From Promethearchaeota archaeon (GTDB lineage: Archaea > Asgardarchaeota > Lokiarchaeia > Sigyniarchaeales > SOKP01): a stretch of DNA of 64,000 bases. The translations under genes were made by a program, and so were the position numbers. The stretch covers positions 64,001-128,000 of the forward strand of contig JBHLOY010000007.1 of NCBI GenBank assembly GCA_048939995.1, in the 5' to 3' direction. The first letter of the stretch is position 1. The number at the start of each line of letters is the position of its first letter. A model generated the notes under the pieces. That model saw nothing but the letters and a program-made list of their open reading frames with translations, was not told the origin of the DNA and searched no databases. Below are positions 10,436 to 50,904 of this stretch, piece by piece.

Positions 10436-11179
10436 ATGGAGTTTGAATCTAAATATTCTTTCATTAAAACTTTCTTATCTATTCCTGATGCCCCGTTTAA
10501 ACTTAAAGAGAGATTAGACTCCCTTATTGAATCTGATAGCTATAAAGAAGAGATTTTAGCAAGAATTATTCAGTTTATATATTATTTTTCCATGTTTAAA
10601 GATATAACACCATTTATGAGATCAGTATATAATTGCATTGAAAAGACTCTTGATATTACATTCGAATCAATAAACGATTTTCAAGAATTATTAATAAAGA
10701 ATACATTATTAATCTTCATTCAAGATTATATTAATTACGCGAAACTAACTCAAAAACGGCAAATCTTAAAACTTTTATCGGATTCCTTAGATAAACTTCA
10801 GATACAACCTCTTATTATTAATTTAGGACTTCTTTTAAAACCAATGTATCAAGATAAGGAATATCTTGAAAATATGCTGTATCTCGAAGAATTTGAAGTC
10901 GCTTATAACCAAGATGATAAACTTGGGTTCCAAATAAAACGTGAAATTGATAACTGGTTTGCAACTCAGACATTAGATTTAGATAATCAAGAAAATTTGA
11001 AACTTTTATTGAAAAGAAAATTTGATGAAGTTGTTTCCCATACCGGAGTTGATAAAAAGTCGAAACATTATCAAAAGTTATTATTAGAGGTTATGGAAAT
11101 GCTTACAATGAAACTTACAATGATAAGCTTAATGGATTCTGTTTCTGATGAATCCCTTGAATCGATATCAATAAAATAG
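10436..11179 (+). CDS. Hypothetical all-helical protein
   Basis: 247-aa ORF with no recognised motif. Confidence 0.7.
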   Translation: MEFESKYSFIKTFLSIPDAPFKLKERLDSLIESDSYKEEILARIIQFIYYFSMFKDITPFMRSVYNCIEKTLDITFESINDFQELLIKNTLLIFIQDYINYAKLTQKRQILKLLSDSLDKLQIQPLIINLGLLLKPMYQDKEYLENMLYLEEFEVAYNQDDKLGFQIKREIDNWFATQTLDLDNQENLKLLLKRKFDEVVSHTGVDKKSKHYQKLLLEVMEMLTMKLTMISLMDSVSDESLESISIK

Positions 11180-11328
11180 AGGATTATTAAAAGCTTTCAA
11201 TCCAATTTTAGTATTTTGTTAAGTGAAATCTTTACGCAAAATTCAAAGCTAGTAATTTTGCGATAAACAAATTAATAAATACAAAGTTTGATTTTATATT
11301 TAACAAGAGGTATTTTATTTTTTATAGA

Positions 11329-12708
11329 GTGAGAGAATTGGGAGAGAATGAAGAACCTTTAACACCGGAAGAAATTGAAAAACAAAAGAAGATCGTTGAT
11401 GAACTTTATAAGAAGGAAAAAGAAGAGAGGGAAGAATATCTTAAAAAATTTGAGAAACAGAGAAAAGACGCATTTGAGGAAAGTAAAAGGTTGATTACCA
11501 ATATAATTTCAGAAAAAAGCTTTATAAGAGAAAAACAACGCGAACAGGACCAGAAGAGAAAAGAGCTTAAACCAGATATAAAAAGTAAGGGAGAAGCAAT
11601 AAGTAAATCTGTCGATCAAAAGGTGTTTATGATAGAAAAGAAGAGAGAAAGTGATACTCAGAGGTTAAAGATTAAACCAGATTTAGAAAAAACTACCGAA
11701 GCGATAAGTAAATCAATTGATGAAAAAGCTTTTTTAATTGAAAGAAAGAAAGAGATTGACGCTCAACGGCTTAGTGTAAAACCTGATAAACAAAAAATAG
11801 AACAAGCTATAGAGAAATCTATAGGAGAAAAGGCATTTTTACGAGAAAAACAACGAGAGGAAGATGCTAAAAGAATGGAACTAAAGCCAGATTTTAGAAG
11901 AGTAGGAGAATCAATTGAAAGAAGTGTAGGTGAAAAAGCTTTCCGAATTGATTTGCAACGAGGAGCAGAGCAAAAAATAAAAGCTTTAAAACCAGATATA
12001 AAAAGTAAGGGAGAAGCTATAAGTCAATCTGTTAGTGAGAAGGCATTTAGATTAGAGAAGCAAAGAGAAACTGTGGAAGAATTAAAAAGTATCAAACCAG
12101 ATCTAGAACAAGCGAAGCAAGCCATAGAAAAGTCAATTAGCGAAAAAGCTTTTATGCAGGAAAAACAACGCGAGGAAGATACTAAACGAATGGAATTAAA
12201 GCCAGACTTCAGAAAAGTAGGAGAATCAATTGAAAGAAGTGTAGGTGAAAAAGCTTTCAGAATTGATTTGCAACGAGGAGCAGAGCAAAAAATAAAAGCT
12301 TTAAAACCAGATATGGAGAAAGTGGGAGAAGCTATAAGCCAATCTGTTAGTGAGAAGGCATTTAGATTAGAGAAGCAAAGAGAAACTGTGGAAGAATTAA
12401 AAAGTATCAAACCAGATCTAGAACAAGCGAAACAAGCCATAGAAAAATCAATTAGCGAAAAAGCTTTTATGCAGGAAAAACAACGTGAGGAAGATACAAA
12501 ACGAATGCAACTAAAACCTGATTTACAAAAAGCAGGAGAGGCTATAGAAAGAAGTATTAGCGAAAAGGCTTTTAGGAGAGAAAAGCAAAGAGAAAACGAT
12601 CTAAAGCGAAAGGAATTAAAACCAGATATCAAAGGAATAAGCGAAAAAATCGAAGACAAAATAGAAAAAATCGAGGAGAAAAAGAAAAAGGAATCACCAT
12701 CTGATTAA
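11329..12708 (+). CDS. Tandem 35-aa repeat protein (nebulin-like period and motif)
   Basis: 459 aa: a 60-aa charged N-terminus followed by 11 contiguous 35-aa units with consensus SEKAFxxEKQRExxxKxxxLKPDxxKxGEAIxxSI. Confidence 0.85.
   Translation: MRELGENEEPLTPEEIEKQKKIVDELYKKEKEEREEYLKKFEKQRKDAFEESKRLITNIISEKSFIREKQREQDQKRKELKPDIKSKGEAISKSVDQKVFMIEKKRESDTQRLKIKPDLEKTTEAISKSIDEKAFLIERKKEIDAQRLSVKPDKQKIEQAIEKSIGEKAFLREKQREEDAKRMELKPDFRRVGESIERSVGEKAFRIDLQRGAEQKIKALKPDIKSKGEAISQSVSEKAFRLEKQRETVEELKSIKPDLEQAKQAIEKSISEKAFMQEKQREEDTKRMELKPDFRKVGESIERSVGEKAFRIDLQRGAEQKIKALKPDMEKVGEAISQSVSEKAFRLEKQRETVEELKSIKPDLEQAKQAIEKSISEKAFMQEKQREEDTKRMQLKPDLQKAGEAIERSISEKAFRREKQRENDLKRKELKPDIKGISEKIEDKIEKIEEKKKKESPSD
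11509..12663 (+). repeat. Coding tandem repeat, 11 x 105 bp, with a 315-bp higher-order repeat
   Basis: Unit 1 starts at Ser61 (TCA at 11509). GTAGGAGAATCAATTGAAAGAAGTGTAGGTGAAAAAGC occurs at 11902 and 12217, 315 bp apart. Confidence 0.95.
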
Positions 12709-12713
12709 AAAGT

Positions 12714-13202
12714 TTATATTTCAAAGTTAGAATTGTAATAATTCAGCATTTCTAGCTTCTTTTCATAATTTAAAATTGAGGGTTCAATTATACCATTAAA
12801 CTGATTAATTGAATTTTCATAGCGATTGTAAAAATCATTTATAATGTAATGTAACAAGTGCCTTTCAAACTTTAAATTTAATTTTTTAGTAATTGCTATT
12901 ACCGACAAGCGGCCTAACCTTTCATATAAAATACGTGTTTCTCTAAAGTTAATCTCTTGAATTTCTTCATCTGTATCTCCCGGTTTTATTTCCTTTATAA
13001 ATAAGTTAAGAGCATTTAAAAATCCGCTAATTAAATCTCCATTTGAAGTATTATTTCTATTTTGAGAATACTGTTTACTTATAAGTAAAGATCCTGTGAG
13101 ATTATCTAAAAAATAAATTGCATGAAAAAAGCAATCACTTTGGTTCACTCTTTTAAATCCAAAACTCTTATTATTAACAATTTTATTAAAATTAAACGAC
13201 AT
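12714..13202 (-). CDS. Longin-like domain protein (Asgard type)
   Basis: IYFLD..TGSLLISKQY, DLISGFLNALNLFIKEI, IQEINF..TRILYE and FYNRYENSINQFNG. Confidence 0.65.
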   Translation of the reverse strand: MSFNFNKIVNNKSFGFKRVNQSDCFFHAIYFLDNLTGSLLISKQYSQNRNNTSNGDLISGFLNALNLFIKEIKPGDTDEEIQEINFRETRILYERLGRLSVIAITKKLNLKFERHLLHYIINDFYNRYENSINQFNGIIEPSILNYEKKLEMLNYYNSNFEI

Positions 13203-14539: not shown

Positions 14540-14666
14540 GGCTCCTGCTACCACCCTGGATTTTTGTCTTTTGGTAGTGTGTGAAAGCACACTCTGATTT
14601 CGCCCTCCTCCCCCTATTTTGTTTTTGACCTTGCTTTTAGGTCTTGGTGGCAGGAGTCTCCTTTTT
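14540..14666 (+). ncRNA. Candidate structured small RNA of unknown family
   Basis: 14-bp terminal stem 14540-14553/14645-14658 with 2 G.U pairs; hairpin AGTGTGT-GAAA-GCACACT at 14576-14593; hairpin GACCT..AGGTC at 14627-14643; 3' T-run; locally GC-rich. Confidence 0.6.
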
Positions 14667-15666: not shown

Positions 15667-17376
15667 TTGATTAATATGACAGAAGAAATTATAAGACGCA
15701 CTACAAGTATCTGTCCAGAATGCCTACAACCTATTCCAGCTGAAATTTACGTTGATGATGATAAAAACTGGGTAATGATGAGAAAAAATTGTAAAGAACA
15801 TGGTGATTTCAAAGATAAACTCAGTATAGATCCAGAAGATTATAAATGGCAACAAACATTTACAGATGAAATTGGCTCCACAGTAGATAATAGTACCAAA
15901 CCCGAATATGTATCTTCGGGAATAAAAGAGTGCAATCAAGGCTGCCCTTATGACTGTGGACTTTGTGATAACCACAAAAGTGCTCCTAATATCTGTTTGA
16001 TTGACATCACCAATAAATGTAATTTAGCATGTCCAATCTGTTTTGCTAATGCGAGTGCAAAGGGATACGTTGTCCAACCATCATATGATGATATTGTACG
16101 CATCATGGAACACTTTCGATCTATGAAACCCACCCCAGCAGTTTTGCTTCAAATTTCTGGTGGTGAACCGACAGTTAGAGATGACTTACCTGATATTATT
16201 CGCAAGGGTAAAGAATTAGGTTTTATTGAAGTAATGGTTACCACTAATGGAGTTAGATTTGCTAAATCAATTGAATTTATGAAAGAATGTAAAGATGCTG
16301 GAATGGATGCTATCTACTTACAATTCGATGCAACTGACAACCCTGAAGTATGGAAAAAAATAAGGGGAGTAAACCTTTGGCCTTTAAAACAAAGAGTTAT
16401 TGAGAATGCCCGCAAACTTGGATTTTATGGTGTAATGCTTGTCCCTGTAATCGCTAAAGGAGTTAATGATAAAGAAGTTGGCAAGATTATGGATTATGCC
16501 AGAGATAATACTGATGTGATTTCAGGAATAATTTATCAACCTGTATCTCTATGTGGTCGTATCAGCTTTGAAGATTTAATGGATTTGCGATATACAACCT
16601 CAGATTTGAAAATAGCATTAAATGAACACACAAATAACTCAATTACTAAATTTTACCCATTAGCTACCACTGCCAAGATGACTCGATTATTAGCTTGGTT
16701 CGATGATGCTCCCGAATGGAGTCCAACCAGTCACTCAGATTGTGGTTTTGCCACAATTGTTGTCGTAAATAAAAAAGGCGAATATGAATCTATTGAAAAT
16801 TACTTTGACGCAGAAGGACTCATCAGTTGGTCAAACAAAGTTTATGACATGGCAATGAAACAGGAAATTCCAAAACCTACCGGACTCCTTAAAGGTATAG
16901 ATTTGGAACAATTTGGCACAGTTGCAACCACAGTAGGCAAGTTTATCGATGATATGACCAACCTAGGCTATCGACAAATTATGAAGGCCTACTATTTTGC
17001 AGGGGCAATGAGATACGTACGTAATCCTGCAAAAATTATGGATAGTAAAACTTTATTAGCATTTTCTCGCCTTATAGCATTTCCCAACTTACAATCTGCC
17101 GGACTTTTCTTCCACGAGAAGAATTTGTTAATATCCTCGATGCATTTCCAAGATTCTTACAATTTTGATTTAGATAGAGTATGTAGATGCCTTGTTCATT
17201 ACGGAGTAGTCGATCCGGAAGACTCCACCAAAATTTTGGAGGTACCTTTCTGTGCTATGAATACATTGCATAGAGAGAGATTAGAACGTGCTTTAGCAAT
17301 ACAAGGCGAGGAAGCGAAAAAACCTGAAGTCATCCAGTCTGAGATCGAAGAACTTTTGGAGACTGTGAAAGATTAA
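15667..17376 (+). CDS. tes: Tetraether lipid synthase (Tes/GDGT-MAS) family radical SAM enzyme
   Basis: N-terminal SICPEC...CKEHG, CPYDCGLC..H, CNLACPICFANA, HSDCG, RCLVHY and PFCAMN. Confidence 0.88.
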   Translation: MINMTEEIIRRTTSICPECLQPIPAEIYVDDDKNWVMMRKNCKEHGDFKDKLSIDPEDYKWQQTFTDEIGSTVDNSTKPEYVSSGIKECNQGCPYDCGLCDNHKSAPNICLIDITNKCNLACPICFANASAKGYVVQPSYDDIVRIMEHFRSMKPTPAVLLQISGGEPTVRDDLPDIIRKGKELGFIEVMVTTNGVRFAKSIEFMKECKDAGMDAIYLQFDATDNPEVWKKIRGVNLWPLKQRVIENARKLGFYGVMLVPVIAKGVNDKEVGKIMDYARDNTDVISGIIYQPVSLCGRISFEDLMDLRYTTSDLKIALNEHTNNSITKFYPLATTAKMTRLLAWFDDAPEWSPTSHSDCGFATIVVVNKKGEYESIENYFDAEGLISWSNKVYDMAMKQEIPKPTGLLKGIDLEQFGTVATTVGKFIDDMTNLGYRQIMKAYYFAGAMRYVRNPAKIMDSKTLLAFSRLIAFPNLQSAGLFFHEKNLLISSMHFQDSYNFDLDRVCRCLVHYGVVDPEDSTKILEVPFCAMNTLHRERLERALAIQGEEAKKPEVIQSEIEELLETVKD

Positions 17377-50499: not shown

Positions 50500-50904
50500 A
50501 TGTCATCAGAAATACAATCAATTATTAATGATCTCTTAAATGAAGAACAAAGTGTATTTGGGGTAGCAGTTGTTAGTAAATCCGGAACTTTAATTACTCA
50601 GACAGAGAATTGGGATATATCTCAGGATCTTGCTAGAATAAATGAATTGCTTCAAACTAAGTTAGAGTTGGGCCAAAAAGGAATGTCAAGTATTTCAATT
50701 CAAGGAATAAAGTATATGATTGTTGAAAATACAGAGGAACGTAAAATTGGAACTAATATAACAGGAAAAGGGCATATAATTATAGCTCCTGTGCCAGTTG
50801 GGGGTACAGGTGCGTTAATCTGCTATATAAACCCGCAAGTAGGACCAAGAGATGCTTTATTTGTAGTACAGTCTTATGCTTTAAAACTCCAAAATTTAGT
50901 TTAA
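50500..50904 (+). CDS. Asgard (Loki-type) profilin
   Basis: 134 aa; GVAVVSKSG.LITQTENW, ISIQGIKYMIVENTEERKIGTN..GKGHII and GALICY. Confidence 0.85.
   Translation: MSSEIQSIINDLLNEEQSVFGVAVVSKSGTLITQTENWDISQDLARINELLQTKLELGQKGMSSISIQGIKYMIVENTEERKIGTNITGKGHIIIAPVPVGGTGALICYINPQVGPRDALFVVQSYALKLQNLV

Follow-up and report, generated by a model that had tools for sequence, protein, structure and literature searches.

A lineage-restricted family of tandem helical repeat proteins in Loki-type Asgard archaea and its comparison with nebulin

Introduction

The repeat units of nebulin are 31–38 residues long, with a proline at position 5 and the motif SDxxYK at positions 18–23 (10.1101/2021.10.06.463400). 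Residues D3, K11, S18, D19, Y22, K23 and K30 of the unit contact actin, and the units differ in length by a shorter helix or a longer loop (10.1101/2021.10.06.463400).

The described actin regulators of Asgard archaea are mainly profilins and gelsolins (PMC13716822). The Lokiactin filament rises by 27.9 Å per subunit, which corresponds to 55.8 Å along one strand (PMC9834061). A co-immunoprecipitation of Lokiactin published in 2026 retrieved profilin, gelsolins and an ARF GTPase (PMC13716822); the organism used in that study probably does not have the repeat gene that is the subject of this article. No nebulin-like or tandem side-binding protein was found described for Asgard archaea in the literature searched.

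The window analysed here is a stretch of 64,000 nucleotides from a Promethearchaeota archaeon of the class Lokiarchaeia. A preliminary description of it proposed that one open reading frame encodes a nebulin-like repeat protein, a candidate side-binder or ruler of actin filaments. The gene is real and conserved in Loki-type Asgard archaea, and its family, which had no description so far, belongs to a known class of design. New here are the corrected start of the gene, the existence of genomes in which its site is empty, and orthologues made throughout of 32- or 37-residue units.

The gene and its start codon

The open reading frame at 11329–12708 (+ strand) is open throughout and encodes 459 residues when counted from its GTG. 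The frame given in the preliminary description stands, but translation probably begins at TTG 11338 rather than at its first codon, which gives a gene at 11338–12708 (+) and a protein of 456 residues; 112 other genomes have an orthologue. Of the 47 orthologue rows in which the GTG is kept, 44 have TTG (34) or ATG (10) three codons further on, and the frequency of GTGA across the genome peaks 5–7 nt ahead of ATG starts. Thus the GTGA at 11329–11332 (+), which is conserved across genera and lies 5 nt before TTG 11338, is probably a Shine-Dalgarno element, that is, the ribosome-binding site. The ESM Atlas record of the protein also begins at residue 4 of the listed frame, matching TTG 11338.

An alignment of 51 upstream regions reveals an AT-rich element at 11270–11303 (+), with a TATA-like box at its end, which is conserved across genera and is the probable promoter of the gene. 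The antisense open reading frame at 12024–12659 is taken to be a shadow of the array.

The repeat array and its variation

The array (aa 61–445; 11509–12663, + strand) consists of 11 contiguous units of exactly 35 residues, as the preliminary description stated: KPD is found 11 times and so is [EQ]K[ASV]F, all the spacings are exactly 35 and there are no indels. Each unit is made of about 31 residues predicted to be helical and a four-residue [LI]-K-P-D break. The self-identity of the protein at lag 35 is 0.435, and 1000 shuffles (best of lags 20–59) never exceed 0.166. The high charge noted earlier is also borne out, with 49% charged residues, a net charge of +12 and a pI of 9.2; the best 19-residue Kyte-Doolittle mean is −0.01, therefore the protein has no transmembrane segment. 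Units three apart are 88–97% identical because of a recent tandem duplication of 315 bp, or three units (11801–12555, +; 2.4 copies, 90% matches).

The array is preceded by a conserved N-terminal charged helix (aa 10–60 from the GTG; 11356–11508, +), which runs into the first unit and in which many positions are 85–98% conserved. AlphaFold predicts a helix at residues 12–78, with a block pLDDT of 82–90 over residues 11–70. This helix is possibly a degenerate unit zero. A degenerate last unit, or C-terminal charged helix, which is conserved within the genus, lies at 12619–12705 (+). Orthologues from several lineages (L056, L057, L072, P0002, P0004 and P0017) carry a short extra C-terminal helix that contains a tryptophan (K-W-L-[ED]-Q-x-K-[KY/F]-x-R-K-like) and is absent from the protein of the window; it is a possible membrane- or partner-binding tail.

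Across 64 proteins the spacing between units is 35 in 485 of 497 cases; the exceptions are 37 (six), 32 (five) and 38 (one). The near-invariant positions in 202 non-redundant units are I11, [IV]15, K18, A19, F20, [ED]23 and [RK]26, with I11 in 99% of the units, K18 in 98%, and F or Y at position 20 in 100%. The preliminary description gave one invariant proline and one invariant phenylalanine per unit. The second holds as an aromatic position throughout, but the proline is invariant only in the protein of the window: it occurs in 86% of the 202 units and is nearly absent from some whole orthologues. The serine of the 'SExxF' motif that had been likened to nebulin is carried by just 18% of the units. 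The core I-xxx-[IV]-xx-K-[AS]-F is the invariant of the family, rather than the period or the proline.

Single 32-residue units are present in several orthologues, and the orthologues have units of 32, 35, 37 or 37–38 residues, to which metagenomic members add lengths of 32, 36, 37 and 38. Residues are missing at the end of the helix in the short units and are added in the linker in the long ones. The units of the sister families have 37 residues, or 37–38 followed by longer degenerate units, and have no proline at that position; judging from these sequences, the 35-residue form with proline is specific to one family. One 37-residue form is situated behind an orthologue of the 247-residue gene that precedes the repeat gene in the window. 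A metagenomic member in which all units have 32 residues adjoins the same metallo-hydrolase gene as the 37-residue copy of a sister family, in a different orientation. Proteins of the high-GC sister family begin with units of 37–38 residues that have the family motif, and then change gradually into another kind of repeat, about 41 residues long (L022:4990–5892 and L076:2057–2971).

The preliminary description had called for a survey of the period in Asgard genomes and regarded variable unit length in orthologues as a refutation of its own reading. The survey upholds the 35-residue period in one family but not in the sister families, and the fixed period gives way to 32, 37 and 37–38 among the orthologues. 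The number of units per protein varies from 3 to 12 (some of these proteins being contig fragments), which argues against the strict length ruler that had been proposed. The units are more alike within proteins (identity 0.49–0.81) than between proteins (0.40–0.48), and whole units are gained or lost among orthologues; they are thus interchangeable.

Distribution and genomic context

Profile searches find the repeat gene in 109 of the 134 genomes of the host's Lokiarchaeia family, in 3 of the 19 genomes of its sister families (1/14, 2/4 and 0/1) and in none of 7 genomes from the rest of the class. Outside the class, 239 other Asgard genomes give one marginal match (E 0.0025). Related genomes in these counts are no independent cases, and failure to find the gene in a metagenome-assembled genome does not amount to absence. 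Two genera truly lack the gene at its site: the two genes that normally flank it are 44–144 nt apart in five genomes, with no repeat gene between them. No match to the gene occurs in three closed sister-family genomes either. The gene tree, built from the N-terminus and the first units, sets the host's family apart from its sisters with a support of 94/89; its branches are long, and it is consistent with vertical descent.

The order of genes is syntenic across the host's family: a DUF362 gene, the 247-residue gene, the repeat gene and a convergent gene of 162 residues. The unnamed upstream neighbour (247 aa; 10436–11179, +) is adjacent in 40 fetched loci and the convergent downstream neighbour (162 aa; 12714–13202, −) in 47, and both are kept where the repeat gene is missing. 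The 162-residue protein looks longin-like by eye, and several domains paralogous to it are part of larger proteins in related genomes; it has no match in Pfam, NCBIfam or the PDB. A radical SAM protein encoded at 15667–17376 (+) comes close to the tetraether lipid synthase Tes (422 bits against a cut-off of 450), and many relatives keep its gene in the neighbourhood of the repeat gene. A GC-rich intergenic stretch at 14540–14666 (+) is predicted to fold (−43.6 kcal/mol; z −4.7 relative to shuffles), its ends pairing and hairpins forming inside; it is a candidate structured RNA with no match in Rfam. Elsewhere in the host genome, outside the window, there is an open frame of 8080 codons near 343878 (+) of G000:C28.

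Database records of family members are unnamed or labelled 'hypothetical protein'. The titles of some records (Hermod-, Odin-, Hod- and Thorarchaeota, and a bacterium) would give the family a wide spread, which we reject: the records titled Hermodarchaeota, Hodarchaeota, Odinarchaeota and Nanopelagicaceae (L034, L036, L037 and L045) coincide in position with genomes of the host's genus (G019, G013, G021 and G011) and are probably mislabelled. Word-based searches, which are swamped by K/E-rich proteins, returned no homologue in one case and two fragments in another. The Pfam match to 'Entericidin' (E 6e-6) and the NCBIfam match to ActR/SorU, which is far below cut-off, are short repeated matches and were set aside.

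Predicted structure

AlphaFold2 models based on alignments of 13 and 112 sequences show helices of about 31 residues with a four-residue break at [LI]-K-P-D, and have pTM values of 0.19 and 0.21. Such values mean that the models give no confident packing; they prove neither a rod nor the lack of a fold. The models thus offer no confident version of the compact, self-folding structure that the preliminary description had named as the contrary outcome: they consist of helical units and short linkers. The nebulin unit is built of helix, kink, helix and loop; no kink is called within the 31-residue helix here, where position 16 is G (26%), S (18%), A (18%) or E (16%). Covariation is mainly local or between positions i and i+35, and favourable charge pairs at i+3/i+4 are in excess over shuffles (z 4.8). 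Searches by shape with these low-pTM models (Foldseek against the PDB, and the ESM Atlas) gave nothing significant, and the ESM Atlas features of the protein gave no usable match. The protein is read as soluble and non-globular, and its modules are predicted to be intrinsically stable helices joined by short linkers.

On a helical wheel, I4, I11, I15 and I22 lie on one face and F20 on the opposite side. The best heptad registers are 39% and 44% hydrophobic and the invariant lysine falls in one seam. A canonical coiled coil was rejected on these grounds, given the lack of a continuous a/d seam, the lysine within it and the proline break. The position of F20 away from I4, I11 and I15, together with the poorly hydrophobic heptads, suggests that the helix uses two faces, as when docking in a groove, which fits better than a canonical coiled coil.

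Relationship to the nebulin repeats

Homology to nebulin, which the preliminary description had left undecided, is not supported: HMM-against-sequence tests fail in both directions, and neither the motif nor the set of contact residues agrees. The nebulin family PF00880 has no match in the protein, is not among the families listed for 29 two-unit segments, and has no match at E≤10 in the host genome. In 400 Asgard genomes it gives 15 weak matches, all on contigs other than those of the repeat gene; the genome search assigns scores to first-look candidates only. In the other direction, a three-unit profile searched against 1.84 billion proteins, a library whose nebulin content is unconfirmed, gives 37 matches; none is longer than 405 residues, the size of nebulin thus not being approached, and every one of the matches listed carries the family motif.

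The motif SDxxY occurs in none of the 202 non-redundant units. The relaxed form S[DE]xx[YF] occurs in 18% of them, and in 4% with a following K or R. In the best register, two of the seven actin-contact positions are matched: D19 is D or E in 90% of the units and Y22 is aromatic in 100%, although a tyrosine in 4%. The other positions agree poorly (D3 0%, K11 16%, S18 18%, K23 28%, K30 21%), and the register set by the proline is worse. A proline placed 13 residues before a serine and 17 before a tyrosine, as in nebulin, is found in 0% of the units; the spacing is one residue longer, as the preliminary description had noticed.

That the repeats are true homologues of those of nebulin and LASP, inherited from the Asgard ancestor of eukaryotes, is therefore very improbable. 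It would account for the 35-residue period, the proline at the start of the helix, the acidic and aromatic residues at D19 and Y22, and the mixture of Gly, Ser, Ala, Asp and Glu at the position equivalent to the kink; the range of unit lengths (32–38) also falls inside the published range of nebulin. It is opposed by the profile searches and the contact residues, by the confinement of the family to one Loki order with essential absence from the 239 other Asgard genomes searched, and by the restriction of the 35-residue proline form to one family, the sister families having 32–38 residues and no such proline. Since the units outside the host's family lack this proline and vary in length, those traits that are most like nebulin may be derived, the rooting not being firm. 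Membership in the nebulin repeats is rejected on these comparisons; the protein could still work like nebulin.

Actin and profilin in the host

The profilin that the preliminary description saw in the window is there, at 50500–50904 (+), 38 kb from the repeat gene (E 3e-58 to PDB 5YED; a PF00235 search misses it). The host genome encodes Lokiactin and has four actin-family genes (L029–L032; contigs C19, C6 and C28). The second actin paralogue is conserved across the host's family and one sister family. The actin and profilin genes show no linkage to the repeat gene, and there is no co-occurrence of the repeat gene with the second actin paralogue. Inspection by eye also led us to reject WH2- and RPEL-like readings of the units, since the hydrophobic residues that these need are out of register.

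A unit of 31 helical residues (46 Å) and a four-residue linker can span the 55.8 Å step of Lokiactin. This fit is a matter of compatibility and weighs little, since a length of 55 Å lies within the reach of many charged helical repeats.

Possible functions

The reading that we put forward, with a probability that comes close to even, is that of an extended multivalent binder which docks on a polymer of some partner. It draws on the sequence data: the period of 35 in nearly all spacings, the interchangeable units and the near-invariance of I11, K18 and F20. The I/K/A/F core of each module would dock on a site that recurs identically along a periodic partner, with one module per partner subunit, and the copy number would tune avidity or span (more modules giving more avidity) with no fixed length being set. 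On geometry alone, the best candidate for the partner is the Lokiactin filament, whose strand step would fit one helix and its linker, but that actin is the partner, by convergence, is unlikely. The same doubt applies to the full proposal that Loki-type Asgards independently evolved a nebulin-like side-binder along Lokiactin filaments with one module per subunit, the repeat protein being a lineage-specific filament stabiliser which converged on the nebulin design. Against actin, the period shifts to 32, 37 and 37–38 (about 41 in the later units of one family) while Lokiactin remains 88–100% identical over the same range; the gene is lost in two actin-bearing genera, where its site is empty, and is not found in the three closed sister-family genomes; and it shows neither linkage to actin or profilin nor co-occurrence with the second actin.

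The same features could belong to a self-associating segmented rod or fibre, in which copies pack in register to form a structural scaffold without any heterologous polymer as partner; this is unlikely, a little more so than the actin proposal. Periodic knots would then be formed by the stripe of I4, I11 and I15 and by the nonpolar turn of residues 19–22. The hydrophobic arc on one face of the first half of the unit (mean hydrophobic moment 0.55 at positions 4–15) and the length of 35, which is five heptads, suit a rod, and homogenised units would keep the packing in register. However, the invariant lysine sits at a core position, the phenylalanine lies outside the core, the second half is polar and the a/d positions are poorly hydrophobic, while periods of 32 and 37 break the heptad phase and most units have a proline break. 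Slightly less probable again is a peripheral-membrane or stress-protective array of amphipathic helices (of the LEA or synuclein kind), or a single alpha-helix that serves as spacer or tether and binds by its ends. The amphipathic first half, rich in small residues and flanked by lysines, the strong pattern of charge pairs, the N-terminal helix, conserved at least as well as the repeats, and the Trp-containing C-terminal helix of some orthologues all speak for it, but the near-invariance of I11, K18 and F20 across the order would exceed what generic lipid binding or spacing needs, and no LEA or synuclein family is among the Pfam matches listed. An RNA-binding solenoid of 35-residue helical hairpins, like that of PPR proteins, is largely refuted and has next to no probability left. 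It shares the period, and the full-length query matches the designer protein dPPR10 (E 1.6e-8), but this match disappears with a three-unit query and with the family profile and therefore reflects summed periodicity. No PPR family is among the Pfam matches listed, the models give one 31-residue helix and no hairpin, and the second half of the unit has no hydrophobic core.

If the multivalent binder acts on actin, a prokaryotic tandem-repeat side-binder of actin filaments would be a class not found described in the literature searched, and a new one in the pre-eukaryotic cytoskeleton; the design of one helix per subunit would have arisen twice. Even if actin plays no part, the gene has no name although it belongs to the core of the best-sampled Lokiarchaeia family, and it was found in none of the closed sister-family genomes. 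Natural variants of this small, soluble and modular protein exist with 3–12 units and with 32, 35 or 37 residues per unit.

Comparison with known systems

The repeat protein resembles nebulin, nebulette, N-RAP and LASP in its charged, helical units of about 35 residues with a proline at the start of the helix, in having no self-folded globule and in its variable copy number. In both, an aromatic residue follows an acidic one by three positions, and the length changes at the same sites (a shorter helix end or a longer loop). In contrast, no similarity can be detected between the sequences: the invariant core reads I-xxx-[IV]-xx-K-[AS]-F here and SDxxYK in nebulin, the distance from the proline to the aromatic residue is 18 instead of 17, and basic and neutral residues are found at nebulin D3 and mostly acidic ones at K11. 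The repeat protein also has a predicted four-residue linker, 3–12 units and no LIM or SH3 domain, and its super-repeats comprise three units, whereas those of nebulin comprise seven.

PPR proteins share the period of 35 and the all-helical character, and their usual consensus has Lys-Pro-Asp at the unit boundary, as in the repeat protein, which differs from them in having no hairpin, no second hydrophobic helix and no profile match. Single alpha-helices of the ER/K type and segmented coiled coils are likewise rich in E, K and R, with an excess of i+3/i+4 charge pairs, whereas the repeat protein has a strictly periodic invariant hydrophobic motif and a proline break every 35 residues. The profilins and gelsolins of Asgard archaea (PMC13716822) occur in the same organisms, a profilin even in the same window, but they are globular proteins that bind monomers, sever or bundle, whereas the repeat protein is built of tandem helical modules.
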